From contig JAHJIQ010000010.1 of assembly GCA_018823285.1 (NCBI GenBank), forward strand, positions 15,808 through 79,807: a DNA stretch of 64,000 nt. Reading direction: 5' to 3'. The notes under the pieces were generated by a model, which did no database searches, was not told the DNA's origin, and worked only from the letters and a program-made list of their open reading frames with translations. A program made the translations under genes and the position numbers. This DNA is from Pseudomonadota bacterium. GTDB taxonomy: Bacteria; Desulfobacterota; Desulfobulbia; Desulfobulbales; JAGXFP01. Shown piece after piece: positions 31,494 to 61,681 of the stretch; position 1 is the stretch's first letter, and the number at the start of each line of letters is the position of its first letter.

Positions 31494-31846
31494 AAATTGA
31501 CCGAGGTAGACAAGTTTGAGTGTTAGTAAGTTACTAATAAATATCGAAGATCATATGTTGCATGTTCCCAGACAGTTACCTCTTTTTAGCCATATTTTCA
31601 CTCTGATAAAAGTATCAATTTGTTGAGGTTAAATTTAAAACTTAATGAAATAGAAAACTTCTTATATGCCATGGTGATTTAGCACAAAATGCTAGGTCAA
31701 AGTCAATTTGAAGGTTAGGATGTTTGGGAGAATTGTGTCTTAGAGAAAAGGCATGATAATTTGGTTGTTTCAGTACTTAGAAGAAGCAAGCTGGTATTGA
31801 AGCTCATTTGATTAAGGTCTTGTGTAGAATTATAAATGGGGTGATC

Positions 31847-33094: not shown

Positions 33095-33642
33095 TGGATA
33101 TTGTAAAAATGGTAGCTGATCTCGATCAATCGCCGGACTTACATATGGCAAGAATTCTTATTCTCCTAGATGCATTTGCAGAGGATGATCAGTGCGGTGC
33201 TATTGAGGGGTTGACTAAACTTGCTAAACTGGACTTCCTGCTACGCTATCCTGTCATGCTTGAGCGAGCTCTTGAAGCTAAAGGATGTTCTACCCGAGAC
33301 ATCCATTTAGATGATCATGAGCGTCACAGTGTGGAGTCAAAGATGGTTAGATATCGCTTTGGTCCTTGGGATCACCGGTATCGGGAGCTTCTCAATATTC
33401 TCATCGCTAAGGGCCTTACAAACATCAGTATCGAAGGACGCACGTTTGTAATTGTTAGCACAGAGATGGGGAGAAATAAAGCTCAACAATTGGCTGAGGA
33501 AGAAATGTTCAAGCCTTATGCAAGACGAGCAAAGCTGCTAAAGAGGAGATTCGATTTAACCGCAACTAATCTAATGCGGTTTATATATGAAACATTTCCA
33601 GAAATTATTTCTTTGAAATCCAACTCGCCCATACCGACATGA
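33094..33642 (+). CDS. lmuC: Lamassu LmuC (ABC-3C middle component)
   Basis: Small helical protein (...IEGLTKLAKLDFLLRYP...) located between the LmuA-like and LmuB-like genes. ATG 33094 overlaps the lmuA stop (TAATG) and is preceded by GGGAGA (33081-33086). An alternative start is ATG 33079. Confidence 0.6.
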   Translation: MDIVKMVADLDQSPDLHMARILILLDAFAEDDQCGAIEGLTKLAKLDFLLRYPVMLERALEAKGCSTRDIHLDDHERHSVESKMVRYRFGPWDHRYRELLNILIAKGLTNISIEGRTFVIVSTEMGRNKAQQLAEEEMFKPYARRAKLLKRRFDLTATNLMRFIYETFPEIISLKSNSPIPT

Positions 33643-35579
33643 AGATATTACTCCGACATCTAATTGTTCGTACTCGGAAATCTACCGAGCACATAGACTT
33701 CTCTGAGGTTGTTACATTTTTATATGGTCCAATCGGCAAGGGCAAGTCAACAGTAGCCCGTTTAGTGGATTACTGCCTTGGAGGGAATCTTGAACGCACT
33801 CCTGCGATACAACAGGAGTTTGTTGCGGCTGAGTTGTCACTCGTTTTAGGGGGCTACGATTGTACGATTGAGAGATCTTCGGAGGACACCCAAAGTGTAA
33901 GGGTTAATTGGGTTGGGCCGAGTGATGAAAATGGGTCAGTAAATGCTCCCTTAAGTGCCCAAGAGGAGCCTTTGATTGATGCAGAAGTGTATAGTCTTAG
34001 TGACTTGATTTTCCATTTGTGTGGAGTTACTCCAATCAAAGTTCGGAAGAGAAGTCGTGACCCAAATTCACCTCTAATCCGTCTAAGTATTCGTGATATA
34101 TTAAGGTATTGCTATCTAGACCAGACACATTTAGATTCGTCGTTTTTTCGTCTTGAGGACCCTTTTCGCGGGCGTAAAAGTCAAGATGCCATGCGATTTT
34201 TCACCGGGTTGTATTCCGATCGTCTAAACCAACTCGAAATTGATTTGATGCGGATTAGGGATGAGCAGCGAACCAAACGTGAAGCAGTGCAGCAAATCCG
34301 TTCGTTTATGGCTCGGTTCAATCTTGGGTCTGAAGATGATATGTTTGCTCAACTCCAGAACACCCGACAGGAACTTGAGGAAGCCACGAAAATCCGAAAC
34401 ACACTTGAAAGTACTCGATCTGTACAAACTCACCCGACAGATACTCTTCGGCACAATCTGAGACAGTTGAGTTTAATGATTGAAGATATCGGCCTGGCAA
34501 TTTCTGAGTTATCAGGAGCAACCAGCGAACAGGAAGCTCTTAGGGCGGAATTGATTACATCAAAGATTAAAGCCGAGAGAGCTGATCACTCTGGAAGAAT
34601 ACTTGGAGGTGTTCAATTTAAACGTTGTCCAGAATGCGGGGTTGATGTTTCTGGTAGGCTAGATAACCAGGAACAATGTGGCCTGTGTGGTAGTGATCCA
34701 GATGATGATGACAATGCCACTTCGCCCCTCGAGTTAGAAGCACTTCGACGAGATCTTAATGAACGCATTGATCAGATTGCTGATTCTATTTCGCGTCGGG
34801 AGCATGAGTTGAGACGAATGGTAAAACAGCTTGAGCTTGCACAGCAAAAGAAAATGTATCTAGATCGTCAGTTGCAGGAAGAACTTGCTCGATATGACTC
34901 TGCGTATGTGGAAAGTATCCGGAATAGCGAGCGAGAAATCGCGACCCTTGTTGAGCGTATAAGATCTCTACAGCAACTTCAACAAATGCCAATTGCAGTT
35001 AATTCTTTAGAGGAAGAAGCTGGTGCTTTGCAAGGTAAGATTGACTTGTTAAAGACATCTGTTACCCAAGAGCGTGAGCGTCTAAGTGACGCCGACGATA
35101 ATATTGCGGCTATAGCTGCAGAGTTTAAACGTGTAATGATTGCGGTCTCTTTCCCAGGAGTAACGGAGGAAGACAGTGTTGTTATAGATCCACGAAATTG
35201 GAAGCCATCAGTTGTTCACGGGGGGCAGGAGTGGAGCTTTTGGGATACTGGGAGTGGAGGCAAGAAAACACTCTTCAACGTATGTTATGCTTTAGCGATT
35301 CATGCTGTTGCTTTGAGTAAAAATATGCCCGTTCCTGACTTTATTATCATAGATAGTCCAACTAAAAACATTAGTGAGGATGAGAACCCTGAATTGGTGC
35401 AAGCGCTCTACGCGGAGATTTATAGGCTAGCAGAAGGGCAAGATGGACGAAGGATTCAGTTTCTGTTGATTGATTCTGAACGAGTTGCGCCTAACGATGA
35501 TCTGCCGGGCTTCTTGGAACGTCGGATGGCTGGTGAACTAGATGCTCCAAGCTTGATTCCACACTACCATGGACCATGA
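33639..35579 (+). CDS. lmuB: Lamassu LmuB, SMC/Rad50-like ABC ATPase (DUF3732-type)
   Basis: 646 aa. Walker A FLYGPIGKGKST, a long coiled coil with a central CPEC...CGLC hook, an ABC signature-like DTGSGGKKT, and Walker B DFIIIDSPTKN. ATGA overlap with lmuC. Confidence 0.8.
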   Translation: MKILLRHLIVRTRKSTEHIDFSEVVTFLYGPIGKGKSTVARLVDYCLGGNLERTPAIQQEFVAAELSLVLGGYDCTIERSSEDTQSVRVNWVGPSDENGSVNAPLSAQEEPLIDAEVYSLSDLIFHLCGVTPIKVRKRSRDPNSPLIRLSIRDILRYCYLDQTHLDSSFFRLEDPFRGRKSQDAMRFFTGLYSDRLNQLEIDLMRIRDEQRTKREAVQQIRSFMARFNLGSEDDMFAQLQNTRQELEEATKIRNTLESTRSVQTHPTDTLRHNLRQLSLMIEDIGLAISELSGATSEQEALRAELITSKIKAERADHSGRILGGVQFKRCPECGVDVSGRLDNQEQCGLCGSDPDDDDNATSPLELEALRRDLNERIDQIADSISRREHELRRMVKQLELAQQKKMYLDRQLQEELARYDSAYVESIRNSEREIATLVERIRSLQQLQQMPIAVNSLEEEAGALQGKIDLLKTSVTQERERLSDADDNIAAIAAEFKRVMIAVSFPGVTEEDSVVIDPRNWKPSVVHGGQEWSFWDTGSGGKKTLFNVCYALAIHAVALSKNMPVPDFIIIDSPTKNISEDENPELVQALYAEIYRLAEGQDGRRIQFLLIDSERVAPNDDLPGFLERRMAGELDAPSLIPHYHGP

Positions 35580-35749: not shown

Positions 35750-36304
35750 TTAGTTGTGGCCATTGAGAGCCTTGTTGTTGAACTCGCCCAAAACCCCGCG
35801 TCGCCTGGTCATCTCCCAGTAATCTTTCAACGACCCCATCAAATATTTTTTTAAAAACATCAAGTCTCTCCAGCTCTCCAGGCCTTCCTGCCGCCGCTCT
35901 TTTTCAAGCTCAAGAACATCTGACTTAATCTTGGCTCGTGCCTCATCAATGGCCCTCGTCAAATCAAACGGGTAACAATCCGCAATATTATCCAACTCCA
36001 TTAACTCAGTGTGCAACCGGCGGACTTCTCCATCAATCTTTCCAAAGTGTGAGTCATTTAGATCTTCACGAAGTTGAATCTCTTCCAATAGTGCATTAAC
36101 CGAGGCCTTCAAAGTCCTAGCCTTATCAGAAAACATGTCTTCAAGTAATGAGTTTTTCCTATTAGGGTCAGGGCTTGAAGCAATCGCCTCCAAAGACTTC
36201 TTCAATTCTTTGTGGGCGAATGGAGTCGCCGTTTTTCTGGGGTTTCCAGGGGAAGTAGCAACTATGTTTGGGTATACTTCTGGGGATAAGTAATGGCCTT
36301 CCAT
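35750..36304 (-). CDS. hypothetical helical protein (only convincing minus-strand gene)
   Basis: 184-aa ORF, convergent with lmuB and divergent from the helicase operon. It is predicted helical or coiled. No recognisable motif. Confidence 0.5.
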   Translation of the reverse strand: MEGHYLSPEVYPNIVATSPGNPRKTATPFAHKELKKSLEAIASSPDPNRKNSLLEDMFSDKARTLKASVNALLEEIQLREDLNDSHFGKIDGEVRRLHTELMELDNIADCYPFDLTRAIDEARAKIKSDVLELEKERRQEGLESWRDLMFLKKYLMGSLKDYWEMTRRRGVLGEFNNKALNGHN

Positions 36305-36611
36305 TTTATCATTATGGAGTGCTAGAGATTATAAGGGTTGTACAAGAATTGGAAGAAGGCCTTCTTTGATATTAGAACAGAATAATTGTGTGGTGATGTA
36401 CACAACCCGATTCTTCCGCTTGCCTATCTTTTTCACAGACTTTGACCAACAGTCCGTCGCAAATTTAATATGGAAATAATTATAACAAACACGCATTGTC
36501 GGTTAGATTGAGTTCGTTTATTTGAGATGGAAGGGGGAATGTGATTTCAGGAACTGCCCCTGTGCCCTTTGCAACAGAGATACGGTGTTGAATCATGAAA
36601 CAACCAACCAG

Positions 36612-39600
36612 ATGACATCCAAAGACTTAAACCATAAGGGTGCCAAGCCCTTCGAACAGTCGGCGGTGTTTACCATTACAAGGATCGGCTCGCAAATCGA
36701 AGTTTGTGATAACCTCCTTTCACGCTTAAGTGACCTGGAAGAACGAAAGTCCGAACTCGTCTATGGGGAGAGACGTCTTTCCGACAAAGCGCGAGAAATT
36801 GATGAACAGCATTTGAGTCAAATTGAAGAAGCGTCCGATGCAGTTTCACTGGCACAGGGCACCCTGTTCAGGGCTGAGGCGGATGCGAAACAGTTACAAC
36901 TCCTTCGTGAACAACAGCAGCAGCGATTTGAGGGACTGAAGTCGGGTCAGTTGTCCCCGGAAGATATCGACCATGTAAAGATTGCTGTTGAGGAAAAGTC
37001 AAAACCGGTAAAGACAGCAATTAGCGATCTTGATAGTCGAATTTTAGAAGCTCAAGGACAAATCGAAAATATTGCTGGAACTATTCAGGCCCAAAAAGCG
37101 GAATTGATTAGTTTTCGGGAAGATCTGGAAACTTTCGAAAATGGAGATATCCCTGCACGGTATTTGGAGACGATCGAAGTAGTCAGGAGAAAGTCTGCCG
37201 ATGACCAAGATAGAGAAATTAAGTTAGCAAGCGACAGGCTGAAAGATCTGACCAATCAGATCGACAAGGCAGGAAATGAAATAAAGATATTGAGTCCAAA
37301 AATTGATGAACTGAAAGCAAGTAGCCTTGAACTGGAAAATGTCTCAAAACAGAACCTTTTAAACAAATTCGGGTCATCTGCCTGGAGAGGGTCCTTCTTT
37401 ACCAACTACGAAAAAGAGATTCAAGAACTAACAAACAAGAAGAACCTTCTGGTGAAACAAAGGTCAAATTCTAAGTCCAAGCTAACGAGAATTAAAAAAA
37501 ATCATACCTCGATCATTACAGGTCGTCCTCAATTTATAGAAGAAGCTGTTCTCGCCGAACGAACAAACCAACTCAGCATTTGTCAGGATATGGTCGATGC
37601 CATCCCTATAACGATCCGCGAAGGCAAGGGGGAATTAGCATCAATTAAAACAGGTTTGAGATCGCTGGAAGATCAGCTTGAAATAAAACGTCAGGAACTC
37701 AAGCTAGTTACGGAGCTGGCCGTAGAGACCGCTAAGAATGAACTTGTTGAAATGGTCAAGGCCAGTCTGGATGAGCTAAGCTTAGCGATAGTGGCCGCTG
37801 GAAAAAACATCGCCATTGCCAACAACCAAAGGACTGAGGCAAATGAAACCCTTGAGCAACTTCGCACCAGATTGTCGGAAGAAAAATCTAAACAACTGCT
37901 GAACATAGCTGAACCCCTTGATGAATTAAACAAGGCGATCCCTATTGATGAAGAACAGCTCATTAATGATGCGAAAGAACATGGTATCGAAGGATCAGTA
38001 ATAAATATCCGAGAAGCAATTGTTGCGATGCGCTCTGGCTTAGTTTGTGAGCGACAACGGGAACAAGAAAGTCTGACCTTGAGTGAAGATAGTGAAATCG
38101 ACAACGCAACCAGTGATGAACCTAGTCTCTTGGATGTTAGTCAGGAAAGCGAGTCTTCAACTGAAGAAAAGAGCTCCCAGGTCAATGGCAATATCTATCT
38201 GGATTTTGCAAAGAACGAGGATGATAATCAGACCCCCCATGGCAAGACTTATCCGGGGTTGCGCTCACAATTAGAGGGATTACGCCGTGCACATGGCAAA
38301 GTACTCTTCCAGGATGCGCCACCCGGGGCAGATCTTCTGTCCATATTTATTGAGACCGTCTTCCCCGAAGGGATCTCACAGTCATATTTCATTTGTAATT
38401 TGAGCCTGCGTGCTGATCAGCCTTATCTCCAGATTCGACCCAAAATGATAGGTCCGCGACTAGAGCGGCAGTTGCCACGGGGAATTTCGTTGGCAGTATC
38501 TGGGAAGCTTTGGGATAATCAAAGAGATGCGGACAACCCTGTGTTTCTTGTCCAAAAAATCGTTGACTTGTCTCATTCTGCAAAACTTCCGTTCGAACAA
38601 TCAATTTCAGGCTTCGTGTTCACCCAATCTCAGAGTGTGTACCCGTCTTCTAAACGACAAGAAAACATTTTATCTAATGACTTCGTCGCCCAACTCCCAT
38701 TGATATCGGTTGTAACAAAAGAGCGACTTCAGGGTTGGCGAGATTATCTGGATTGGAGAGAGAGGCTCGTTAGTTCACGTCTTGTCGGTCTTCGGTACCT
38801 TGACATCGAGGTGTTGTCTGACGGTCGTATCCGTTTCTTGACAGTTTGTGAGTCAAAAGAAAACTTCGACCAGGTGCGCCGAACGCTTAGCAGTAATGAG
38901 TTGCAAGCCTATGGTCTCAACTACTCACAGGACCCCTGGGAGTTTGAATACGACGACAAGCAACGACCACGCAGGGCCGAATTGGGAGATTTCGCAGGTC
39001 AGGATGAGCTAATCAGTCCGGGCGATGTTGATATAGACGGAATGCCTTGGGAGACGCCATATTTTGTATATGTAGACTTTCGGCTTCCCGAAGAATCCCA
39101 GAATGAGTTTGATCGTATCATCAACGGCGGAGGAACTGTTGAAGAAGCGGCGCAACGGTATTTGAGCCGTGTAGATTCTTCAGGGTTTCTCGCGCTATCG
39201 GTTGTTGGTGATATGATACTGATAAAACGTCAACGAAGTGAATTGCAGCAACTTCAGGAACAATCCGGACACGCCCCCTTTCTCTCCTCTTATCTGTTCG
39301 ACATCAAGGCTGCGAGTGAGCCGTCGAAACTAAAGGAGATAAACGATAACGATTGGCGTCAGACCAGTCTCAATGATGAACAAAGGCTTGCTGTCAAAAA
39401 AATGGTCAGTACTCCTGATCTTGCAATGGTTCAAGGACCACCAGGCACCGGCAAGACGACGATGATCGCAGAGGCCACCTGGCAGTTTATTCGAGACGGC
39501 AAGAAGGTTCTTCTCGTTTCACAGGCTAGTTTGGCTGTCAACAATGTACTAGAGAGATTGGCACAGGTCCCTGCCATCCGCGCGATTCGACTGAGTCGAA

Positions 39601-42128
39601 AGGAGAGAAACAACGAACGTGAGCATCCTTACAACCAAGCGAACGCGATTGGAACATACTATCGAAGTATCGCAGAGGCATGTCAGTGCCGTACTCTTGA
39701 CGTGTGGTCCAGCGCTGACGAGCGATTGGAGGCGGTATCCAAATGGATCAAATCTGTGGATTTAGTTTCTGGCGACATGGATTCTTTGCGTTCGAAGTCA
39801 GACTCCCTGACGAATCAACGTGCAGTTTGCAAGAAAGAGTTGAAACGACTTAAGGAGTCGGATGAGCGTGCCCGAGACATCGATCAGCAAAAACGAGAGG
39901 TCATGGCGCTAAGGTCATTCATCGAAGGTGCCGCCTCTTTTGCAGGGACTATTCCCGAGCCATTGCTGCGGGTAATTTACGACCGAATTGTTTTGCCCCT
40001 GGATCGTCTTTCCGAAATCGGCATAAGAGCTAATGTCCTGTGGTCTGAGTATGATTATGGCTCACTTTCAGAGCGAACACGATTTGCGGTAGAAGCATTG
40101 CTGAACTGGCGTAAAGTAGCCGCATTCAAGTCACAGATAAATGGTGACCGTGATCGACTCCAAGCGACTGAAGGGGATTCTGTGCTCTCTTCTGAATCGG
40201 CAATACGTCTGGCGGAATTACAGCGTAAGCTTCAAGACACGCTCAAGGCAATGGAAGAAGATGACAGCAAGGTGTTCGAATATCAGGCTATCCAGAAAGA
40301 AATCCGAGAAGTAAAACGTAAAGGTTCTGGACTGGATATGGACATCTATGTTTGCCTGTTTAACGCGCCAGACAATAAATCACTTTCCATCTTGACCAAT
40401 GCAGGAAGTATGCGAACCCAGGTTGTTGAAACGCTTGATGCAGCATATGCATTACTTATGGAGATAGAGGCTGAGATCGAGGATGGTTGCAGGGAGGTCT
40501 GCTCAGAGCTTGGTCGATTCATTGATTCGCTTGCTTCAACCGAGGTCGACAAAGATGAAATGCGGCGATTGGAGGGGCAGCTCCGCCATCTGACGGAACG
40601 CCAGAAGGAGTTGTCTTCAGACCTTTTCGCCAAGGAAAAAAGGCTTAGCGATATTCTTTCCGAGCGTTCGGAAAATTTATCTGGTGTGAAACTAGATAAT
40701 GGTGAACTCCAATCCTTACGTGCGATGGCAGAACGGGATCGAGACTCGTTAGCCGAAAGTCTGAAGCAGAGTCGTTCATTCCGAGATTCTTGGGGAGATG
40801 TTCTCCAGCGATGGGTATCCGACCTGACGGATCCTGAAACAGTCAAGTGCGATCAAGATAACTTCCTTCCTACTTACATCAATGCGTGCAACGTGGTTGG
40901 TGTGACTTGCACAGAAAGAAGAAACACTCTCGAAGATGCTGGCCATACATGGTTCGACGCGGTTATCGTCGATGAGGTGAGTAAGGCAACTCCGACTGAA
41001 ATTATTATGCCGTTGATGATGGGCAGGACGGCCATCCTGGTGGGTGACCATCGGCAACTGCCGCCACTTTTCAAGGAGCAAGAAGGGTCCTGGGAAGAAG
41101 CAATCGCTGATCAAGAGGAGTCGAACGAAGAAGACCAGAACTCCGACAGCGAATTGACGGCCGAAAACTTCGATCGTTTCAAGAAGATGGTGACGTCGTC
41201 CCTTTTCAAGGAGCACTTCGAAAATGCTCCGGATAGCCTTAAGTCGTTCCTCTTTACTCAGTACCGAATGCATCCGCAGATTATGCGGGTCGTGAACCAG
41301 TTCTATGAAAACAGACTTATATGTGGGCTGTCGGACCCCGACGGGAAGAACCCAGATTCCGACCCACGAGGACATCGTGTTCATGGCCTCACATTGCAGG
41401 GTGAAAAAGACCAACGGTATATCGTACCTGAGCAGCATGTGGCATGGATTGATTCAACTCTCGACCCCCACGGAAAACGTCACTATGAGAGTAGTAAGCT
41501 CGGTAGCAGCAAGGTCAACGAACTTGAATGGATCTTAATTGCCAAGTCTCTGTTCGACATTGAAATGGCTTGTCGGGATAAGGGGTTCGGAGCGAATGAC
41601 AAACCACCCAAGCAGGTAGGGATAGTTACATTTTACAATGGCCAAAAAAACGCCATCAAGAGAGCAGTAAAACGTATTGAAAGTGTTCGCAAAACCCGGT
41701 TCTCAGCTATCGATTGGGATGTTAACACCGTGGATAGATATCAAGGGCAAGAGCGGCCTATCATTCTGGTGAGCATGGTAAGGAGCCCGCCTTTTAAGTT
41801 GTCTCAAAGGGCAAACACAGCTCAGTTTGAAAGGATTAATGTCGCCTTCTCCCGGGCAGAAGAGTTGCTGGTAGTTGTGGGAGCTAAGGACGTCTTCTGC
41901 AAATATCCTGTTTTCCTGCCACATTTAGACAAACCAGGCAAACGCAAGGTTGAGGTCTATCGGTTTATAATAGATGAGATCCAACGAAGTGGTGGCCTTT
42001 GGTCCTCCGACTATATTATCTCCTCGCATGAATACGACAGGCTTCTTCCCGCCGGATTCTCGCCGAAAAGATCAAATGGCCGTCCAAATCAAAATAACAA
42101 TCGTCACCGAGGGAGAATTAGTAAATGA
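36612..42128 (+). CDS. giant coiled-coil Upf1/DNA2-like SF1 helicase (AAA_11/AAA_12 type)
   Basis: Motif I MVQGPPGTGKTTMIAE (about 39434), motif II AVIVDEVSKATPTE (about 40971), then LVGDHRQLPP, FTQYRMHPQI and TVDRYQGQERPIILVSMVRS. The N-terminus is a coiled coil of about 530 aa. The first ATG is at 36612; the ORF-track start at 36522 is a TTG with no Shine-Dalgarno sequence. Confidence 0.85.
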   Translation: MTSKDLNHKGAKPFEQSAVFTITRIGSQIEVCDNLLSRLSDLEERKSELVYGERRLSDKAREIDEQHLSQIEEASDAVSLAQGTLFRAEADAKQLQLLREQQQQRFEGLKSGQLSPEDIDHVKIAVEEKSKPVKTAISDLDSRILEAQGQIENIAGTIQAQKAELISFREDLETFENGDIPARYLETIEVVRRKSADDQDREIKLASDRLKDLTNQIDKAGNEIKILSPKIDELKASSLELENVSKQNLLNKFGSSAWRGSFFTNYEKEIQELTNKKNLLVKQRSNSKSKLTRIKKNHTSIITGRPQFIEEAVLAERTNQLSICQDMVDAIPITIREGKGELASIKTGLRSLEDQLEIKRQELKLVTELAVETAKNELVEMVKASLDELSLAIVAAGKNIAIANNQRTEANETLEQLRTRLSEEKSKQLLNIAEPLDELNKAIPIDEEQLINDAKEHGIEGSVINIREAIVAMRSGLVCERQREQESLTLSEDSEIDNATSDEPSLLDVSQESESSTEEKSSQVNGNIYLDFAKNEDDNQTPHGKTYPGLRSQLEGLRRAHGKVLFQDAPPGADLLSIFIETVFPEGISQSYFICNLSLRADQPYLQIRPKMIGPRLERQLPRGISLAVSGKLWDNQRDADNPVFLVQKIVDLSHSAKLPFEQSISGFVFTQSQSVYPSSKRQENILSNDFVAQLPLISVVTKERLQGWRDYLDWRERLVSSRLVGLRYLDIEVLSDGRIRFLTVCESKENFDQVRRTLSSNELQAYGLNYSQDPWEFEYDDKQRPRRAELGDFAGQDELISPGDVDIDGMPWETPYFVYVDFRLPEESQNEFDRIINGGGTVEEAAQRYLSRVDSSGFLALSVVGDMILIKRQRSELQQLQEQSGHAPFLSSYLFDIKAASEPSKLKEINDNDWRQTSLNDEQRLAVKKMVSTPDLAMVQGPPGTGKTTMIAEATWQFIRDGKKVLLVSQASLAVNNVLERLAQVPAIRAIRLSRKERNNEREHPYNQANAIGTYYRSIAEACQCRTLDVWSSADERLEAVSKWIKSVDLVSGDMDSLRSKSDSLTNQRAVCKKELKRLKESDERARDIDQQKREVMALRSFIEGAASFAGTIPEPLLRVIYDRIVLPLDRLSEIGIRANVLWSEYDYGSLSERTRFAVEALLNWRKVAAFKSQINGDRDRLQATEGDSVLSSESAIRLAELQRKLQDTLKAMEEDDSKVFEYQAIQKEIREVKRKGSGLDMDIYVCLFNAPDNKSLSILTNAGSMRTQVVETLDAAYALLMEIEAEIEDGCREVCSELGRFIDSLASTEVDKDEMRRLEGQLRHLTERQKELSSDLFAKEKRLSDILSERSENLSGVKLDNGELQSLRAMAERDRDSLAESLKQSRSFRDSWGDVLQRWVSDLTDPETVKCDQDNFLPTYINACNVVGVTCTERRNTLEDAGHTWFDAVIVDEVSKATPTEIIMPLMMGRTAILVGDHRQLPPLFKEQEGSWEEAIADQEESNEEDQNSDSELTAENFDRFKKMVTSSLFKEHFENAPDSLKSFLFTQYRMHPQIMRVVNQFYENRLICGLSDPDGKNPDSDPRGHRVHGLTLQGEKDQRYIVPEQHVAWIDSTLDPHGKRHYESSKLGSSKVNELEWILIAKSLFDIEMACRDKGFGANDKPPKQVGIVTFYNGQKNAIKRAVKRIESVRKTRFSAIDWDVNTVDRYQGQERPIILVSMVRSPPFKLSQRANTAQFERINVAFSRAEELLVVVGAKDVFCKYPVFLPHLDKPGKRKVEVYRFIIDEIQRSGGLWSSDYIISSHEYDRLLPAGFSPKRSNGRPNQNNNRHRGRISK

Positions 42129-44587
42129 AATTGACTGATATCCGCATCGGTGTACCAATGCTTCGGATAGAAACGCGTGTCTTTCACGCGACTCCTCGCA
42201 AACCGACTGCATTTGAGCGAGTCATTCTTGCCGTGGCCGATAGGTTCGGAGTTGACGCCAACTTCAACAATCTCCCTCTAGATCGTCTTTTTATTGATGT
42301 CCTCTGCGTAGTTGACCCTACGCCGATAGTGACGCCCACACTCACTGAACTCATTACCCTGGATGTTATACGTTGCTTGAGTGATGTCGAATCACTGAAC
42401 ACTTTGACCTTACGCGACATAGAGATTACTGAGCGTGGACATCGTATGATTGCGGAAGATATGCTGCCAGCCAAGGCGATGCAGAACGATGAGGTGTTCT
42501 TTTATGATCCAATCCTTCAACGACTACTTCCTGAATCTCAATCCAAGGCTTATCGTCCAGTTCCTCCCCAGTTGTCAGTTGATGTTACAGTTTTTGAGGA
42601 TGTATTTCCAGAAGACCAGATTCGCTCGAAGATTCAGGGTGGAGGTTATCGTTGGTTTAGTGCCGCAAGCCAGATTGAAAAGCTTGAATCCCAGGCGGTT
42701 CAGATCTATTGGAAAGACACTCCCAGCTCGGTCGAGTTGAAATCTGGGGAATTGGTCATTGATTCCATAGATGAAGGCCTTAGTTCCTATATCAGTTCGC
42801 TTGATTGTGAAAAAGCCTATGATCGCTTCATTGCACCGGTATTTGATAATCATGATTTACAATTAGAGCTATTCCCGGAAATTGCTGTCGACAACCTTAA
42901 TTGGGAAAATTTCCATATCCTGCCGGTTCAGCGTGTGTTGTTCAATTGGCCAGAGAGTGCGCGAGTTGTTATTACCAATTTAAATCATGCTGATCCCTCA
43001 ACCCCGGATCAAGCGCTGCCACAACAGGCCATCATCATCTACCACGATGACAAAGATGCAGATGATATCCATTTTGAATGGAATGAGAATCGAAACGGCT
43101 GCAAGCTGAGAGTAAAGGCACCGGCTCCTGACCCAAGTTTCCTGCGTCTAACGGATCAACATGAAGTCCGTTGCCATCGTATTCAAGCGACGCACGGAGG
43201 CATTGAGCGTCAGTTCCTTGTAGCGTATCAAGGTCGGATCAGCAGTGACGATGAATTGATAAGCAATCCTCTTCGGTCTCTTTCAAGTATCTTTAACCAA
43301 AAAGTAAGTCAAGAGGATCTCTGTGCTGCTGTACTTTGGGAAGGCGAATCCCTGTATATGGAGAATCTTCTTCGGCGACTAGCGACGTCTAACTCTCTAC
43401 TGGATGATCTTGTTCCAGCGTTCTATTCAGGGTTAGCCGACACAGAACGAGTTAATGGCACAATCAACCGTAATGCCTGGGATGAAACACTGTTCAATTT
43501 ACTCTGCGAGTGTATCAATTCTTCTGAGGACTTCGAGTTGTCCGCCAATGAAGGCCTCCTTCATGTCCTGTCGAATTACGGTCCTTATTCCGAAAAGCAC
43601 CAATCACTTCTACTTCAGACACTTATCCAAAAAGTTCCGCTACCACTCAATCTCGATGAATTGAAAGCAATATGGGCTTCATTTCGCCTTCTATATCCTG
43701 GATGGACCTCCAACTTTCCTTCCCGGTTGCTGACTCAGGAGATATTAAAGTCGATACTTGAAAGCTTTCCGAAAAAACTAGACGATGATCTTTTGACAGA
43801 AGATAATGGTTTCTTTCGTCTAATCTCATCGTTGCATCAACTCTACGAAAAAATTTCTAAAGTGGTCGGAGGCGAAGGTATTGAAGGGCTTGTCGGTGAC
43901 GATGATTACGTTGCATTAATCAAGGCCCAGCCACAAGCCGGATTGGCCGACTTGGCTCATTCCTGGGTGACAGAAATGGAGTCTTTGTCTTCAGCGCTAA
44001 TGGACTACGATTCAATTTTACTTGGGACTCGTTTGGAGTTGATTCATAGCAAAGTTACAGAAATTGGCAGGTGGTCTGCCAAACTTATCGGAGCACTCGC
44101 TAAAAATGTTCAATCAGTCTATGTGTTTGATACGTCAGCTCTTATAGCTCAACCGAGCATTGTCGCAAGTGTTTGCCCTAATGAATTGTTTGTTGTTACC
44201 AAGCGGGTTATTGATGAACTGGACGACAAGAAACTTGATGAGACTCTTCGCCCGAGTGTGTCCGAGGTTGTGCGTAATCTACGCAGGATAAAGAAAGAGC
44301 AGATTCAGTTTTGCGATGGAGAGATGTCGCTTCTCCCTAAGGATTACCGTATGAAAGGTGACAACCTGATTCTGTCGGTCGCAGTCCGCTTTCGCACACA
44401 TAAGCCAACCTTGATTACTAATGACAACAACCTCTCCCTGAAGGCACAAGCTGAAGGCATTGCGGCAATGACGGCAGGAGAGTTTGAGATGAGAATAAAG
44501 CCTAAGACGCAACACAATGATCAGTTGCATCGCGGCCGCCCTCAAAATCCCAAGGGAAATCCCGAGGGGAAAAGGAGTAAAAAATGA
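42125..44587 (+). CDS. large protein with C-terminal PIN-domain nuclease
   Basis: 820 aa. The C-terminus reads VYVFDTSALIAQ...VVTKRVIDELDDKK...DNLILSVAV...TLITNDNNLSLKAQAEGIAAMT, matching the PIN_4/PhoH-associated PIN pattern. The tail is basic. ATGA overlaps on both sides. Confidence 0.7.
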   Translation: MKLTDIRIGVPMLRIETRVFHATPRKPTAFERVILAVADRFGVDANFNNLPLDRLFIDVLCVVDPTPIVTPTLTELITLDVIRCLSDVESLNTLTLRDIEITERGHRMIAEDMLPAKAMQNDEVFFYDPILQRLLPESQSKAYRPVPPQLSVDVTVFEDVFPEDQIRSKIQGGGYRWFSAASQIEKLESQAVQIYWKDTPSSVELKSGELVIDSIDEGLSSYISSLDCEKAYDRFIAPVFDNHDLQLELFPEIAVDNLNWENFHILPVQRVLFNWPESARVVITNLNHADPSTPDQALPQQAIIIYHDDKDADDIHFEWNENRNGCKLRVKAPAPDPSFLRLTDQHEVRCHRIQATHGGIERQFLVAYQGRISSDDELISNPLRSLSSIFNQKVSQEDLCAAVLWEGESLYMENLLRRLATSNSLLDDLVPAFYSGLADTERVNGTINRNAWDETLFNLLCECINSSEDFELSANEGLLHVLSNYGPYSEKHQSLLLQTLIQKVPLPLNLDELKAIWASFRLLYPGWTSNFPSRLLTQEILKSILESFPKKLDDDLLTEDNGFFRLISSLHQLYEKISKVVGGEGIEGLVGDDDYVALIKAQPQAGLADLAHSWVTEMESLSSALMDYDSILLGTRLELIHSKVTEIGRWSAKLIGALAKNVQSVYVFDTSALIAQPSIVASVCPNELFVVTKRVIDELDDKKLDETLRPSVSEVVRNLRRIKKEQIQFCDGEMSLLPKDYRMKGDNLILSVAVRFRTHKPTLITNDNNLSLKAQAEGIAAMTAGEFEMRIKPKTQHNDQLHRGRPQNPKGNPEGKRSKK

Positions 44588-45732
44588 GCGAGTCTGTCCA
44601 CTATCGATGGAATCTTAAAGCACAGATGCGTCGCCAGGCATATCTGGATCGCATTCAGGGTAATGTAGCGAAGTTCCATGACAGGTATAACGCGAAATTT
44701 GAAGATTTGGTCAATCAAGGTCTTGAACAATATTTGCCTAGTGACTTTGCCGATTTTCGTACTCAATTGGCTCGACTTGAAAGACTTCTTTCATCCGACC
44801 CGGAGAGCGCTCGTGAATTGAGCTTCGAAATAGGCAGCCAACTCAGTCACTTACCTGGATTGGCAAGGGCTGCCAAGCGAGAGTTCGAGTCTCGTGAGAT
44901 CCAGAGACGTAAAGAGATAGCTGAAATGCGGCGTCATGCCAGTAGCGAACTTGCTCAATTCATTCAAAACATGATTGCCGAGATAAACGACCCTATTGAA
45001 TTGGATTTTGCCTATGAGCAAGTCAGGGCAGTTCAATCAGATTACCAGGGGCGCATTGTAGATGCAGGTGAGTTGTCAGAGATCAAGGCGAACATTCAAT
45101 CCCGCTTTGCAGAAATACGTAAAGCATCACAATCAAAGGCTGTAATTTGGAAGAAGGAAAAGTCCAAGGAGAATTCCAGAGAGGCGACGGAGTCTTTGGT
45201 GGCTCTCTACACAGAGCATGCGACGGCAGATGCCAGCAATAATCCTAAGGCACTCTGTGCTATGTTGGAAAGTCTGGAATCAGTACGGCGACAAATCAAT
45301 GGATCATCATCCCTTGAGGACATCAAGAGCAAAATCGCCGAAGCGACGAAGGCCGTCGATACTGCCGTTGCAGATGAAGACTGTCGTCGCATGGTCGTTC
45401 GCTCAATTATGGATTCATTGGAGAAATCCGGATTCATGGTTTCGAAACCAAAAAGGAGCGACGGTGATGTTGATGAAGTTGTCATACTCGCTCGCAAGCC
45501 TGCAGGGGCTGAGGCTGCTTTCCGAGTTACGGCCGACGGCAGTATGATTTACAAATTCGACCACTATGAAGGAATGCAATGTAAGGACGACATAGACAAG
45601 GTTCTTCCTCTTCTAAAGGATATTTACGGGGTCGATTTATCTGAGGAAAGGGTCTTGTGGCAAAACCCTGTTAAGATTTCAAAATCTTCCAAGCCAATGG
45701 ATGAGGATAAAACGGAGAGTTACCATGGTTAA
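44584..45732 (+). CDS. hypothetical helical protein, partner of the ClpB-like ATPase
   Basis: 382-aa ORF, translationally coupled on both sides. Mostly helical. No motif recognised. Confidence 0.5.
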   Translation: MSESVHYRWNLKAQMRRQAYLDRIQGNVAKFHDRYNAKFEDLVNQGLEQYLPSDFADFRTQLARLERLLSSDPESARELSFEIGSQLSHLPGLARAAKREFESREIQRRKEIAEMRRHASSELAQFIQNMIAEINDPIELDFAYEQVRAVQSDYQGRIVDAGELSEIKANIQSRFAEIRKASQSKAVIWKKEKSKENSREATESLVALYTEHATADASNNPKALCAMLESLESVRRQINGSSSLEDIKSKIAEATKAVDTAVADEDCRRMVVRSIMDSLEKSGFMVSKPKRSDGDVDEVVILARKPAGAEAAFRVTADGSMIYKFDHYEGMQCKDDIDKVLPLLKDIYGVDLSEERVLWQNPVKISKSSKPMDEDKTESYHG

Positions 45733-47593
45733 TGATAGTGAGAACAACTGGTTAGTTAACCTGAATCGACAGGCTGGCATCCGTCGGGCGGTCATCCTGC
45801 ATGGGGATGTTCTGGACGTCTGCTACGACATCGCCAGTTCAACATATCGGCCCATTCTTGATGTTGTGTTGCGCACATTGAAAGATCGTGGATTTCACCA
45901 TGTGGTTGTGTGGGATCGGTTCTCAGGCGTTGAGAATATCGCTAGCGACGTGTGGAAATCGATGGTTCAAGAAGCTACGTTTGGTTCATCTTCACAGGAA
46001 GATGATTCTGATCATGATTATGATGTCGGGCCACGTGACATCCCGACGGATGCAAGCGCTGGTATAATCCCTCAGAATACTGACGATTTTCTGGCTGTCC
46101 TTTACCATCACATGTTGCGGCCAAAAAAAGAGCGGGTAGTATTTGTTCTGGACTGGACGCAATACCTTTTTGGTAATGCTAATGCACTATCGGAACAAGA
46201 GCGGCAATGGTTGCTTATCATCTCAAAGGCAATTCGCAACGCTCCCGTACCGACCGACGATGTAGAAAGCCTGAAGAGTCCTTCAAATTTGGTCGTTTTG
46301 CTGTGTCAAAGGCTGGGCGCTATCCCTCCATCTCTCTACCAGGCGAATCCATCTATTCAAGAAATAGTAGTTCCTTCACCTAGTCGGATAGAGCGGGAAC
46401 ATTTTCTTAAGCGCAGCATCGACAAATGGGCGCTCCGCGCAATGCCAAACCCTGGTGAGTTGGCATTCAGCGATTTTGTTGATGCCTTGGAGGGTATGTC
46501 TCTACGCGATCTTCAACAACTTGTACGTCTTTCTCGACAGGTTCCTGGTGACCCACTCACGTTTGATCGTCTTATTAACCTGTACCGCTATGGTGAGCAA
46601 AAAAGTCCTTGGGAGGATCTTAGTAGATCAAAGTTGGCGACAATCCGCGACACTCTCAAGAAACGGGTCAAAGGGCAGGATGAATCTGTCGACAAGGTGT
46701 CTAGAGCCATTATCAGGGCGTTTACGGGCCTCTCCGGACTTCAGCACTCCAAGAAACAGAGAATGCCGAAGGGGACATTGTTTTTTGTGGGGCCCACCGG
46801 AGTAGGTAAGACGGAATTAGCCAAGTCACTTGCACAGTTCTTGTTTGGTGACGAGGACGCATGTATCCGTTTTGATATGTCCGAGTTCAACCACGAACAC
46901 AGCGATCAACGTCTCGTTGGAGCGCCTCCTGGTTATGTTGGTTACGAGGAAGGCGGCCAACTCACCAATGCAGTCATAAAGCGGCCATTTTCGGTTTTGC
47001 TGTTTGACGAAATTGAGAAGGCTCATGTCCGGATTCTCGATAAGTTTCTCCAAATCCTTGAAGATGGAAGGTTGACTGATGGGAAGGGCGAGACTGTTCA
47101 TTTCTCGGAAACCGTCATTATCTTCACATCAAATATCGGTGCGTCTGAGGTCGAGCTTCAGGATGATCAAGAAGCTGTGCGTCAGCAGTTTATGGAGAAG
47201 GTCAAGGAGCACTTTGTCAAAGTAGCTAAGCGTCCAGAACTGCTGAGTCGACTGGGTGACAATATCGTCCCGTTTAATTTCATTATCGGAGACGATTTTC
47301 TTGTCTCTATCGCTCGGGCGAAATTACAGCCTCTGCGGGATCGGCTAAAAGAGAAATATCGCATTACTGACCTAGCTTTTGACGATGAAGATAAGGCCCT
47401 CTTGGCACTCTCAAACAGTGTGGACCGCCAAAAGGGCGGGCGTGGCGTATTAATCGAGATTGTGAAAAGGATAATTGACCCACTGGCCGATTTTTTGTTT
47501 ATGGAGGAGGATGATCCGACACACTATGCAGGACGCAGCATTGTTGTTCATCAGGCAGGTGCCGAGGCTACCTTTGTTTTTGAGGTGAGGTAG
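45725..47593 (+). CDS. ClpA/ClpB D2-type AAA+ ATPase with degenerate N-terminal half
   Basis: LFFVGPTGVGKTELAKSLAQFLFG...RFDMSEF...LVGAPPGYVGYEEGGQLT...FSVLLFDEIEKAH...ILEDGRLTD is the classic Clp D2 (AAA_2) module. The N-terminal half has no Walker A. ATG 45725 is 5 nt after GGAGAG (45714-45719); the ORF-track start is 45701. Confidence 0.8.
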   Translation: MVNDSENNWLVNLNRQAGIRRAVILHGDVLDVCYDIASSTYRPILDVVLRTLKDRGFHHVVVWDRFSGVENIASDVWKSMVQEATFGSSSQEDDSDHDYDVGPRDIPTDASAGIIPQNTDDFLAVLYHHMLRPKKERVVFVLDWTQYLFGNANALSEQERQWLLIISKAIRNAPVPTDDVESLKSPSNLVVLLCQRLGAIPPSLYQANPSIQEIVVPSPSRIEREHFLKRSIDKWALRAMPNPGELAFSDFVDALEGMSLRDLQQLVRLSRQVPGDPLTFDRLINLYRYGEQKSPWEDLSRSKLATIRDTLKKRVKGQDESVDKVSRAIIRAFTGLSGLQHSKKQRMPKGTLFFVGPTGVGKTELAKSLAQFLFGDEDACIRFDMSEFNHEHSDQRLVGAPPGYVGYEEGGQLTNAVIKRPFSVLLFDEIEKAHVRILDKFLQILEDGRLTDGKGETVHFSETVIIFTSNIGASEVELQDDQEAVRQQFMEKVKEHFVKVAKRPELLSRLGDNIVPFNFIIGDDFLVSIARAKLQPLRDRLKEKYRITDLAFDDEDKALLALSNSVDRQKGGRGVLIEIVKRIIDPLADFLFMEEDDPTHYAGRSIVVHQAGAEATFVFEVR

Positions 47594-47595
47594 TT

Positions 47596-48195
47596 ATGGC
47601 TCGGTTGAATCTTGCGGACTGGGTTGATTGCACAGAGGTTGAAGGACCTGGAAAGCGTCTGGCACTGTGGGTGCAGGGCTGTTTGCTGAGATGCCCGGAA
47701 TGTTGCAACGCTCATATGCTTGAGATCGTTCCACGCAATGTTGTTGGTACTGATGTTGTTTTGGAGTGGATCAATGATGCGAAGAATTTGCACTCCATTG
47801 AAGGTGTTACTTTTCTTGGTGGCGAGCCGATGTTACAGGCTAGAGGTTTGTCTGAAATTGCGCGCGGATGCCAAGATATTGAGCTATCTGTTATGACTTT
47901 TACAGGATATCCCCTCGACGATCTCAATCAGAACCCAATGCCAGGAGTTTCAGATCTACTTATTCACACTGACATTTTAGTTGATGGCCCTTTTGTATTG
48001 GAAAATCCTGAGCGGACAAGAAACTGGGCTGGATCAATAAATCAGCAATTCCACTTTCTTTCTGAGCGCTACAAAGCTGGCATCGAGTTCGATCCTGCTT
48101 ATAGCCGCGGGTTTGAACTGCGAATATTTGATGATGGCAGAGTACGGACGAATGGATGGCCTTTGGGGAGTATCAATAGGGTCTGGACACGCTAA
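47596..48195 (+). CDS. NrdG-like radical-SAM activase (anaerobic RNR activating protein family), orphan
   Basis: VEGPGKRLALWVQGCLLRCPECCN contains a CX3CX2C triad at 47680-47703. Also present: GVTFLGGEPMLQ and DILVDGPF...WAGSINQQ. GAGGTGAGG Shine-Dalgarno sequence. Last gene of the operon. Confidence 0.8.
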   Translation: MARLNLADWVDCTEVEGPGKRLALWVQGCLLRCPECCNAHMLEIVPRNVVGTDVVLEWINDAKNLHSIEGVTFLGGEPMLQARGLSEIARGCQDIELSVMTFTGYPLDDLNQNPMPGVSDLLIHTDILVDGPFVLENPERTRNWAGSINQQFHFLSERYKAGIEFDPAYSRGFELRIFDDGRVRTNGWPLGSINRVWTR

Positions 48196-48998
48196 CTATC
48201 TGAAATCATTTCTAATCATTGTTTGTAGTAGACCTTTCTGGAGCTTGTATTGACGTTTTTAAGGCCAAAAGACTCAAATATATAGAGTTTATAACGCATG
48301 GTTTGTTGATTTGCGTTGAATATTGGCCCCCAAACAACGCCCAAGGTGACCCCTCTGTGAAAACAAATACCTGCCTTTTTAATGTCCTTAGCCTCCACCC
48401 CGAATAGATTCTAGAGTGAAAAAGATCTTTCGCATAAATCGGAACAAGATAATATTTCGACGCGGAAATCGGTCAATGTTGGAAGTTGATCGACAAGCTG
48501 ACTTTAGTCTGGGATACCACGTATTAGAGTCAGCTATACAGTACAGTTAAAATGATACGCATATGGCTACTGCGAAAAAGTAATTCTATTAACTGCATTT
48601 TTGAGTAGTGGGCTCTCCCTTTTTTTTCGTTCTACCTCGGCATTCATACAAAGCTCTTTCAAACTAGCAAGTATTGTGATCTGTGCAAGTAGATCTGATG
48701 GATTTATTGGTTTGTATCTACGTGGTTTGTAGGGTTTTTCCTACAAAGAAAATTCTTGTTAGAAAAATTAAATCATGTTCTTTTACTCAACTGTGATGGC
48801 AGGTCCTGTTAGCTTGTCACTCAATAAGACTGGGGGGAGTCTTTCATTTCTGGAGTATTCCTGGTCTAAATCATATTTGCTCGTGTTGTGTTTTGTTGAT
48901 CGAGGGGCTGTTCTTTTGCCAGTTATCAAGCTGAATGAGTGAAATGTTTTTTCCCCACTTTGTGCATTTGTGCTTTTATGCATTATTAGGAGTTCTAT

Positions 48999-49831: not shown

Positions 49832-50203
49832 ATGAGATCCGGGATTGCCATTATACTTACTGCTTGTTTGTTGCTTGGGTCATCTTTTGTCAAGGCTGAT
49901 GCTTTGCGTACATATAGAGGTTTTTTATTTTCCCAGAGCGGCCAACCTGTTAATTCCACTGTAAGTATGACATTCCGAATCTATGATGTGTCTGTGGGTG
50001 GCACTCCCATATGGAATGTTACAAAAAACATCCAGATTTTGGACGGCATGTTTGAAGTGCAGCTGGGAGACAAACAACCCCTTAATGATTCTATTTTTGA
50101 GAATGATGAACTTTATATCGGTATCCAAGTGGGTATAGATGATGAAATGACCCCTCGCAAGCAGATGAGCAGCGAGGGGTATGTTTTTAAGACGAAATAT
50201 TAG
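49832..50203 (+). CDS. secreted protein consisting only of the shared N-domain
   Basis: 123 aa. Signal peptide, then YRGFLFSQSGQPVNSTVSMTFRIYDVSVGGTPIW...MFEVQLG...LYIGIQV...TPRKQM. Confidence 0.5.
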   Translation: MRSGIAIILTACLLLGSSFVKADALRTYRGFLFSQSGQPVNSTVSMTFRIYDVSVGGTPIWNVTKNIQILDGMFEVQLGDKQPLNDSIFENDELYIGIQVGIDDEMTPRKQMSSEGYVFKTKY

Positions 50204-50222
50204 TGATAATACATTTGGGCAA

Positions 50223-55445: not shown

Positions 55446-55495
55446 TCAAAAAACAAGAGGTTTGATTTTATAACTTCAGACATACAGGACTAGTG

Positions 55496-61642: not shown

Positions 61643-61681
61643 ATAATGTTAATTAAGAACCTAAAACAAAAAGGTTTAAGC

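Follow-up and report, generated by a model that had tools for sequence, protein, structure and literature searches.

A candidate undescribed five-gene operon with a Upf1-like helicase, an optional PIN domain, a ClpB-like ATPase and an NrdG-like radical-SAM protein in a bacterial defence island

This report concerns five adjacent genes in a 64,000-nucleotide stretch of a Desulfobacterota genome (contig JAHJIQ010000010.1, positions 15,808 to 79,807). The whole stretch is called the window below, and coordinates are those of the window unless another locus is named. The genes, numbered 1 to 5, are open reading frames (ORFs) of the + strand at 36522-42128, 42125-44587, 44584-45732, 45701/45725-47593 and 47596-48195. 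A previous reading of the letters alone (the sequence-only reading) had proposed that they form a defence operon. Direct inspection of the sequence bears out both the coordinates given there and the tight coupling of the genes: genes 1 and 2 overlap in an ATGA at 42125-42128, genes 2 and 3 overlap in another at 44584-44587, the gene 4 start codon ATG 45725 overlaps the gene 3 stop codon TAA (45730-45732) by 8 nt, and a 2-nt gap separates the gene 4 stop codon TAG (47591-47593) from the gene 5 start codon ATG 47596, upstream of which lies the Shine-Dalgarno-like GAGGTGAGG.

The same five genes occur in the same order in at least 17 of 21 independent loci, and the hosts belong to at least five phyla (Desulfobacterota, Alpha-, Beta- and Gammaproteobacteria, Planctomycetota, Synergistota, Bacillota). 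Since it recurs in at least 17 unrelated loci, this order is far beyond chance, and the expectation of the sequence-only reading that the genes would be found together in other genomes is confirmed. We are almost certain that they constitute a genuine co-inherited module. A phmmer search with the five window proteins against six-frame ORFs showed genes 1-5 to be collinear on one strand wherever the contig was long enough. All loci with enough flanking DNA are co-linear except two, L017 and L001. The latter, in a Planctomycetota genome, holds only genes 3-5 and a helicase fragment. The former (L017 11016-13254, Planctomycetota 354-166) has genes 1-4 without a gene 5 homologue behind them; its next ORF lies on the opposite strand.

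The family is large and dispersed. A profile search over 1.84e9 representatives gave 410 clusters of gene 3 at 50% identity (E<=1e-10); at 90% identity, the gene 3 search gave 75 clusters and the gene 5 search 436 clusters (E<=1e-10 for the latter). All five sampled gene 5 contexts proved to be the five-gene operon, including those of Paenibacillus urinalis (complete chromosome) and Fervidicella metallireducens. Three divergent gene 3 members were also considered: the same order is found in a Synergistales genome and in a metagenomic contig, and the third is of the Planctomycetota L001 type. When 185,579 species, each represented by one genome, were scanned with two peptide patterns, 11 loci emerged (Desulfobacteraceae, Gammaproteobacteria, Thermogutta (two), Gemmataceae, other Planctomycetota, Massilia norwichensis, Duganella and others); since the scan relies on these patterns, the count underestimates the prevalence. 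A tblastn search of PLSDB with gene 3 found 10 plasmid records from five species, 7 of them conjugative: Moellerella wisconsensis (six records), Leisingera thetidis, Photobacterium toruni, Polaromonas naphthalenivorans CJ2 and Acinetobacter sp. WCHA55 (pNDM1_010055). The conjugative carriers include those of Moellerella and Leisingera, and in all five species the plasmid copy has the five genes in order (MNY64_RS17110-RS17090 on pW18-2-a of Moellerella wisconsensis, CDG62_RS00740-00720 in Acinetobacter WCHA55). Searches for gene 3 or gene 3-4 DNA in phage genomes, IMG/VR and complete E. coli genomes found nothing. The module is clearly a mobile accessory cargo, which is repeatedly, but not always, located in conflict islands.

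Conservation differs strongly between the genes. The median identities of the proteins of 21 non-redundant loci to those of the window fall from 61% (gene 4) through 53.5% (gene 5), 38.6% (gene 1) and 35% (gene 3) to 27.6% (gene 2), so that gene 2 is the fastest-evolving member of the gradient 4 > 5 > 1 > 3 > 2. Judged from these comparisons of proteins and gene content, genes 3-5 plus the helicase form the conserved core, and the PIN domain is an optional or exchangeable accessory.

The domain assignments of the sequence-only reading held for every gene: AAA_11/AAA_12 in gene 1, PIN_4 in gene 2, nothing in gene 3, AAA_2 plus ClpB_D2-small in gene 4 and Fer4_12/Radical_SAM in gene 5. Gene 1 (36522..42128, +) encodes a Upf1-like helicase of superfamily 1B (SF1B), recognized by Pfam, PADLOC and PDB sequence matches and 1868 amino acids (aa) long when counted from TTG 36522. 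Since homologues align only from residue ~29-31, the true start is probably ATG 36612 (residue 31) rather than this TTG. Pfam reports AAA_11 (1.9e-30) and AAA_12 (1.1e-34); the PADLOC model MkoA matches residues 774-1803 only (3e-95; a second MkoA model, 2.7e-80); and the closest PDB relatives by sequence are SMUBP-2, UPF1, DNA2, SEN1 and Aquarius. All SF1 motifs are present: GPPGTGKT 972-979, VDEVS 1483-1487, GDHRQLPP 1508-1515, DRYQGQE 1738-1744 and VAFSRA 1774-1779. The motifs and the closest solved relatives assign gene 1 to the UPF1 clade of SF1B helicases. No Ser/Thr kinase domain is detected in it by Pfam.

The helicase core of gene 1 (39357..41921, +), delimited by Pfam, PDB matches and motifs, comprises two RecA domains and an insertion of ~350 aa (aa ~1101-1450) between motifs I and II; judging by its composition, the insertion is probably helical or coiled coil. 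The N-terminal region (aa ~51-545; 36672..38156, +) is rich in E/K/Q/L/R/A and poor in P/G and aromatic residues, a composition that probably corresponds to a coiled coil. It is present only in the long members (~1830-1880 aa) and missing from homologues of 1230-1400 aa. A conserved pre-helicase domain of ~400 aa (aa 545-945; 38154..39356, +) has no Pfam or PDB sequence match. In the Planctomycetota genome PPR_0503 (L001 9058-9750) a stand-alone 230-aa protein matches aa 529-694 of gene 1 (1.6e-19); it immediately precedes genes 3-5, and the locus has neither the helicase nor gene 2; another locus, L002, is arranged likewise. This arrangement hints that the pre-helicase domain may link the helicase to the trio of genes 3-5; alternatively, it is a decaying copy.

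Gene 2 (42125..44587, +) encodes a multi-domain protein of 820 aa, described here from the ORF, Pfam and an AlphaFold2 model (predicted local distance difference test score, pLDDT, 84.6). Its N-terminal beta-rich domain (aa 1-371; 42125..43237, +) is the sole part kept in every locus; all homologues align over ~aa 2-240/340, and Foldseek gives no significant match for it. An all-helical repeat domain (aa 377-652; 43253..44080, +) is found in some members only. The C-terminal PIN domain (44114..44488, +), identified by Pfam and Foldseek, is of the SMG6/Nmd4/Dis3 type: PIN_4 matches residues 666-783 (2.5e-15, 57.4 bits vs the cutoff of 21.9), and the structural matches are T. thermophilus 3ix7, human SMG6 (2hww), SMG5, yeast Nmd4 (8rdd/8rd3) and the Rrp44 PIN domain, 8rd3 being the Nmd4-Upf1 complex. 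Its acidic residues D669, E698, D746 and D767 are intact and nearly invariant among the PIN-bearing homologues, so a catalytically intact RNase of the SMG6/Nmd4 type is predicted.

The sequence-only reading had taken the PIN protein to be stand-alone, and this claim did not survive. The PIN domain is the C-terminal part of the multi-domain gene 2 product, and it is missing in about 6-7 of the 21 loci, roughly a third (L003, L005, L012, L017, L021, L022 and probably L010). Pfam recognizes no replacement domain in the versions that lack it. The C-terminal domain can thus be regarded as exchangeable, which is usual for defence effectors; fast-evolving and with an exchangeable C-terminus, gene 2 looks like a sensor/effector adaptor.

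Gene 3 (44584..45732, +; ORF, profile search and structure model) encodes the marker protein of the system, 382 aa, which has no match in Pfam, NCBIfam, PADLOC or PDB sequences. In the model (pLDDT 82.8), aa 3-281 form long helical hairpins and aa ~283-350 a small alpha/beta domain; the tail (aa 355-382) is predicted to be disordered yet is conserved, with W359-x-N361-P362. The most conserved residues in 132 diverse homologues cluster in the small C-terminal domain (45430..45633, +), which carries the motifs A-[RK]-[KR]-P-[SA]-G308 and Y328-E-G330-x-x-C333. Conservation is 100% for Y348 and for G308, which a predicted beta-hairpin carries at its tip (K305-P-A-G308 in the window protein), 99% for C333 and 97-99% for W359/N361/P362 (P362 99%). 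Foldseek matches are weak only (E 0.02); they concern the RnlA N-terminal domain and the spermine synthase N-domain/AdoMetDC-like fold. At the start of the protein, Met-Ser (44584-44589) is 98-99% conserved in the 132 homologues although a variable coiled coil follows; this suggests a constraint on the N-terminus, e.g., processing or recognition. The C-terminal glycine (...HG) was tried as a conserved modification site and discarded, as only 25 of 131 diverse homologues end in G.

Gene 4 (45725..47593, +; ORF, Pfam and PDB matches) encodes an AAA+ ATPase of 622 aa. Its mechanical ORF starts at 45701, and every homologue starts at a Met equivalent to 45725, which supports the start already assumed in the sequence-only reading. 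The C-terminal part (46610..47524, +; PDB phmmer 3e-66) is an AAA+ module of the type of the second nucleotide-binding domain (NBD2) of ClpB/ClpC, plus a small domain. Walker A GPTGVGKT 356-363, the pore loop GYVG 403-406, Walker B LFDEIE 426-431 and the sensor-1 TSN 468-470 are invariant in 17 homologues. A regular-expression search over the whole protein found no IG[FL] tripeptide, the loop by which the ClpP partners ClpA/ClpC/ClpX dock. Gene 4 is predicted to be an active threading ATPase without a protease-docking loop. It was rejected as a full ClpB/Hsp104 disaggregase (NBD1, NBD2 and the middle domain): only NBD2 and the small domain align (query 300-600), TIGR03346 scores 284.7 bits vs the cutoff of 1232, and the N-terminal 295 aa match no family.

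This N-terminal domain of gene 4 (aa 1-295; 45725..46609, +) is conserved, has no Pfam match and belongs to no recognized family. It contains the motif [YF]-[DNS]-[VMI]-G (99-102), conserved inside an otherwise variable acidic loop. The domain is possibly a degenerate AAA+ module; a degenerate ring was not confirmed by comparison (hhalign against its own NBD2, probability 0.3; VAT D1 in a PDB profile search, E=0.16).

Gene 5 (47596..48195, +; Fer4_12 6e-29) encodes a radical S-adenosylmethionine (radical-SAM) protein of the NrdG/PflA type, 199 aa. Its motifs are EGPGKR 16-21, C29-x3-C33-x2-C36, GGEP 75-78 and GS-x-NQ 146-150, all conserved in the family and the first three in 17 homologues, and a C-terminal extension of ~45 aa is specific to the family. 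The best PDB match is PflA (4e-7). Such motifs mark the clade of glycyl-radical-enzyme activases, not enzymes of the viperin or QueE type. By its motifs and small size, gene 5 falls within the activase (NrdG/PflA) family, and it has every sequence hallmark of an enzyme that would abstract hydrogen from a protein glycine. It is not NrdG proper: the NCBIfam model TIGR02491 gives 83 bits (2e-23), below the equivalog cutoff of 126.1, and no NrdD is found in the window operon or in any homologous operon.

In one locus, L019 (10783-12907, Fervidicella metallireducens AeB), a YjjI-like glycyl-radical enzyme (NRDD/YjjI-like) lies directly 3' of gene 5. It has its own activase and is accompanied by a short radical-SAM fragment; this is the sole locus with an adjacent glycyl-radical enzyme. 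The helicase and AAA+ genes of L019 each appear to be split in two, possibly owing to frameshifts or assembly errors.

The sequence-only reading held that no named system matches this combination, and comparison with PADLOC-DB v2, NCBIfam release 20, RefSeq names and the full-text literature agrees. We consider it very probable that the five-gene module is undescribed to date. In PADLOC-DB v2, gene 1 matches MkoA, gene 4 matches PDC-M37B (8e-31) and DolB (9e-21) through the AAA+ core, and gene 5 matches pVip (4e-4); genes 2 and 3 match nothing, and MkoB, DolA and PDC-M37A are unmatched in the five proteins. Mokosh, Dodola and PDC-M37 would not be called because their defining partner proteins are absent. 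No NCBIfam release 20 (June 2026) model exceeds its cutoff in any of the five proteins; the helicase matched the model 'PLuB system helicase-like protein' in RecA2 only and below the cutoff (140.8 vs 999 bits), and nothing relevant on PLuA/PLuB was found in the literature. The RefSeq labels of the plasmid copies are generic: 'AAA domain-containing protein', 'PIN domain-containing protein', 'hypothetical protein', 'AAA family ATPase' and '4Fe-4S single cluster domain-containing protein'. The full-text literature search found no description of the five-gene combination; a mention of radical SAM in Kaur et al. 2020 refers to FtsH ternary systems and is unrelated.

The nearest named relative is Mokosh, which combines a COG1112/Upf1-like helicase with a nuclease of the phospholipase D (PLD) family; the type I MkoA carries a kinase domain. 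The likeness consists in a large Upf1-like (COG1112, AAA_11/AAA_12) SF1B helicase combined with a nuclease. The operon differs in that it has no PLD nuclease, its nuclease, if present, is a PIN domain on a separate protein, and there are three extra conserved genes. The MkoA match is limited to the helicase core (profile positions 460-1082 of 1112); PLD, MkoB and PLDc have no match in the five proteins, and the MkoC match (2.6e-20) covers helicase residues only. Membership in Mokosh was rejected for lack of MkoB/PLD or an MkoC-type fusion.

CoCoNuT systems of types II/III contain the Upf1-like helicase CnuH with coiled-coil segments, RNases, the McrB GTPase CnuB and the McrC protein CnuC, and some of their operons include a CDC48-like AAA+ unfoldase with only one active ATPase domain (Bell et al. 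2024, PMC11090510). The operon shares with them a coiled-coil Upf1-like helicase, associated RNases and predicted RNA targeting; it differs in having no CnuB/CnuC and an AAA+ protein of the ClpB NBD2 type, and radical SAM occurs 0 times in that paper (PMC11090510). As there are no McrB/McrC homologues (the McrB match of gene 4 in NCBIfam reaches only E=0.0064), membership in CoCoNuT was rejected as well. There is also a likeness to the UPF1-SMG6/Nmd4 machinery of eukaryotic nonsense-mediated decay, in which a UPF1-clade helicase meets a PIN domain, the nearest structures of ours being SMG6, SMG5 and Nmd4. The analogy is confined to function: UPF2/UPF3-type partners are absent, the PIN domain is optional, and nothing in eukaryotes corresponds to the remainder of gene 2.

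As to the other genes, DolB of Dodola and PDC-M37B are, like gene 4, defence-associated ClpB-like AAA_2 ATPases. Their models bear no relation to the N-terminal 295 aa of gene 4, and DolA and PDC-M37A were not detected; Dodola was rejected for want of a DolA match at E<=0.01, and PDC-M37 because PDC-M37B alone matches. Gene 5 resembles NrdG/PflA in its small size, in [DE]-G-x-G-x-R followed by CX3CX2C, in the SAM-binding motif GGE and in the C-terminal GS-x-NQ, and differs from them in that its operon has no NrdD, PFL or Gly_radical partner, in the ~45-aa extension and in the invariable linkage to a ClpB-like ATPase. With pVip and Ophion (OpnA) it shares the occurrence of a radical-SAM enzyme in a putative or validated defence operon; nucleotides are the known or proposed substrates of those enzymes, whereas gene 5 belongs to the protein-activase type. 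The pVip assignment was rejected because the match (E=4e-4, 17.9 bits) covers the cluster-binding region only, and Ophion, which consists of radical SAM, PHP and a phosphoribosyltransferase (PRTase), because the gene set is different.

The genomic context is partly that of defence. As the sequence-only reading had it, the operon lies in a defence island beside Lamassu and a DISARM-like operon, both of which are upstream. Lamassu is directly upstream (31808-35579, +) with LmuA (DUF4297-type, 6.4e-16), LmuC (6.2e-17) and LmuB (7.6e-79), and is preceded by a DISARM/Druantia-like hybrid cluster of six large co-directional genes (4489-30917, +). Elsewhere, the Acinetobacter pNDM1_010055 copy is flanked by a DarT homologue and by a VakA-like kinase with a viperin-like radical-SAM gene. 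The Moellerella plasmid copy lies among a PDC-S26-type PD-(D/E)XK nuclease, ArdA, a restriction S-subunit fragment, insertion sequence (IS) elements and integrases. Other neighbours are an integrase with an excisionase (L021), transposases (L022, L025), a WYL regulator (L019) and an HsdR-N-domain protein (L027); the Leisingera copy is near ssb and radC on a conjugative plasmid. We hold it moderately probable that the module is a defence system (anti-phage or anti-plasmid).

The explanation that we prefer, by a narrow balance of probability, is a mobile undescribed defence module of two halves. In the first half, gene 1 would act as a 5'-3' SF1B helicase translationally coupled to gene 2, whose N-terminal domain probably docks on the helicase and whose C-terminus would serve as the exchangeable effector. 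By analogy with Mokosh and UPF1-SMG6, this half may load on foreign or aberrant RNA (possibly single-stranded DNA, ssDNA) and cleave it where the PIN domain is present. The second half, the most conserved linked part and presumably the engine, would consist of the coiled-coil gene 3 protein, the gene 4 ATPase of the ClpB NBD2 type and the radical-SAM gene 5 protein. Here gene 5 would abstract hydrogen from a protein glycine, the best candidate being G308 of gene 3, and gene 4 would remodel or unfold the gene 3 protein (perhaps via its conserved tail) or the whole complex, thereby switching the system on or off; alternatively, gene 4 may deliver the radical-bearing protein.

As a hypothesis, G308 is ranked as the best substrate site of gene 5 since it is 100% conserved, lies in a hairpin motif loosely like that of glycyl radical enzymes and belongs to a domain that also has a conserved Cys; glycyl radical enzymes relay the radical via a conserved Cys. 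The Y-D-V-G loop of gene 4 comes second, having been downgraded as a radical site because it was not invariant after Bacillota members were added. The motif [KR]-P-[SA]-G308 has a loose resemblance only to the signature R-V-[SCA]-G-[YFW] of these enzymes. It is tempting to see in genes 3-5 a minimal protein-radical machine in genetic conflict, in which the radical would reside on Gly308 of gene 3, Cys333, Tyr348 and Trp359 would act as relays, the ClpB-like ATPase would present or deliver the gene 3 protein, and the whole would be coupled to an RNA surveillance of the Upf1/SMG6 kind; we consider this improbable. A specific protein-radical mechanism of any such form is the weak part of the model and seems to us distinctly doubtful.

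Several facts weigh against the two-half defence model. None of the five proteins contains a canonical glycyl-radical domain (Gly_radical, PF01228, has no match), the small domain of gene 3 has an unlike fold, and no glycyl radical enzyme is among its Foldseek matches. Many hosts, such as Acinetobacter, Polaromonas, Massilia and Leisingera, are aerobes, and O2 would destroy a stable glycyl radical. RNA cleavage cannot be the universal output because about a third of the loci have no PIN domain, and the preference of gene 1 for RNA or ssDNA is not readable from sequence. The parts are separable, as L017 is without gene 5 and L001 without the helicase and gene 2. Finally, the flanks in many genomes are metabolic, glycan or other ordinary genes, so that an enrichment in defence islands is no more than putative; the case for defence is circumstantial and consists of the island context in some genomes, the carriage on mobile elements and the patchy distribution.

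The last points lead to the reading of the operon as a mobile accessory module with a non-defence function (RNA/protein quality control, plasmid maintenance or competition, counter-defence), which we consider unlikely. ClpB-like and NrdG-like proteins are families of the housekeeping type, most of the sampled chromosomal flanks are non-defence genes, the Leisingera plasmid copy has ssb and radC for neighbours, and no copies were found in phage genomes or IMG/VR. However, defence cargo is typically distributed in the rare and patchy manner seen here across at least five phyla, and in independent replicons the module adjoins Lamassu/DISARM-like genes, DarT and viperin-like genes; moreover, its nuclease domain is exchangeable and its helicase is homologous to a validated defence helicase.

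If the operon does belong to defence, it could be a Mokosh variant, type-I-like, in which a PIN protein replaces MkoB and three accessory genes are added. Mokosh is defined by a Upf1-like helicase with a nuclease, and both MkoA models match gene 1, but this match is confined to the helicase core and no PLD, MkoC-type fusion or kinase domain was detected. Furthermore, conservation is higher in genes 3-5 than in the helicase, L001 retains them without it, and the nuclease is dispensable in about a third of the loci; we believe this variant to be quite improbable. The persistence of genes 3-5 in L001 with only a 230-aa gene 1-related fragment, together with the strong difference in conservation between the halves, could also mean two independent adjacent systems, with genes 1-2 as a helicase-nuclease pair and genes 3-5 as an AAA+/radical-SAM trio. 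Against it, the five genes are co-linear with mostly overlapping stop/start codons in at least 17 loci, which cover at least five phyla and include plasmids of five species; whenever gene 3 or gene 5 served as the query, homologues of genes 1-2 were returned; every gene 2 homologue found belongs to this five-gene family; and genes 1-2 alone were never seen, in a search that was not exhaustive. Such a division is very unlikely. A chance arrangement of ORFs or an annotation artefact is already refuted: the family matches are strong, the catalytic motifs are intact and the synteny recurs.

Should the defence role be confirmed, the preferred reading, a two-half defence module, would describe a widespread system with hundreds of diverse members, so far invisible to annotation and carried, among others, by conjugative plasmids of Enterobacterales relatives and an NDM-1 plasmid of Acinetobacter. 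A ClpB-type unfoldase with a radical-SAM protein of the glycyl-radical-activase type would then be a combination without precedent in immunity, and the link between bacterial defence and eukaryotic RNA surveillance would be extended, since a UPF1-clade helicase is paired with a PIN domain of the SMG6/Nmd4 type. The module is a concrete and testable case of protein-radical chemistry outside anaerobic metabolism; were the radical reading true, it would be the first immune system with a protein-based radical as its core chemistry, as opposed to the nucleotide product of viperin. Cultured hosts and complete plasmids make the question directly testable.

The remaining features of the window and of two plasmid loci are as follows. 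A sigma-70-like promoter candidate, TTGACC-18-TAATAT (36442..36471, +), precedes gene 1; it is a weak, merely positional candidate because pattern scans of the region for promoters and terminators gave no more sites than shuffled sequence. Scanning the whole window for Rfam families and tRNAs gave no match. Beside the plasmid copy of Acinetobacter sp. WCHA55 (L024 15904-17886) lie the VakA-like kinase (5e-19), the viperin-like radical SAM (1.1e-11) and a 162-aa ORF, and beside that of Photobacterium toruni (L027 2514-4582) there are two divergently transcribed radical-SAM genes.

The DISARM/Druantia-like cluster, all on the + strand, consists of a DrmD-like SNF2 protein (4489-7338), a type IIG restriction-modification (RM)/DrmMI-like methyltransferase (7338-12065; PDLC03614 9e-284), a 2538-aa protein with weak TmtA-like N-terminal matches only (12066-19682), DrmD (19692-22373; E=0), a DruE-like helicase of 2129 aa with a C-terminal ZorE/HNH-like segment (22386-28775) and a UvrD/NERD GajB-like helicase (28776-30917). 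No single named system corresponds cleanly to this combination. A 662-aa protein with an FGE-sulfatase (formylglycine-generating enzyme-like) domain (942-2930, +) is situated at the island's left edge. Lamassu and the operon are separated by a 184-aa ORF (35750-36304, -) with no Pfam or PADLOC match.

Downstream of the operon, a stretch of ~800 nt (48196-48998) with a lower GC content (~40%) and no ORF of at least 80 aa separates it from the next gene and may be an island junction. Two paralogous Rhs-repeat proteins with DUF6531 follow on the + strand, at 50181-55445 (RHS_repeat 2e-123) and 56300-61642 (RHS_repeat 1.8e-129). Each is followed by a small ORF with no family match (55493-56278 and 61646-62527, respectively), and the Rhs genes with these ORFs are probably pairs of a polymorphic toxin and its immunity protein.

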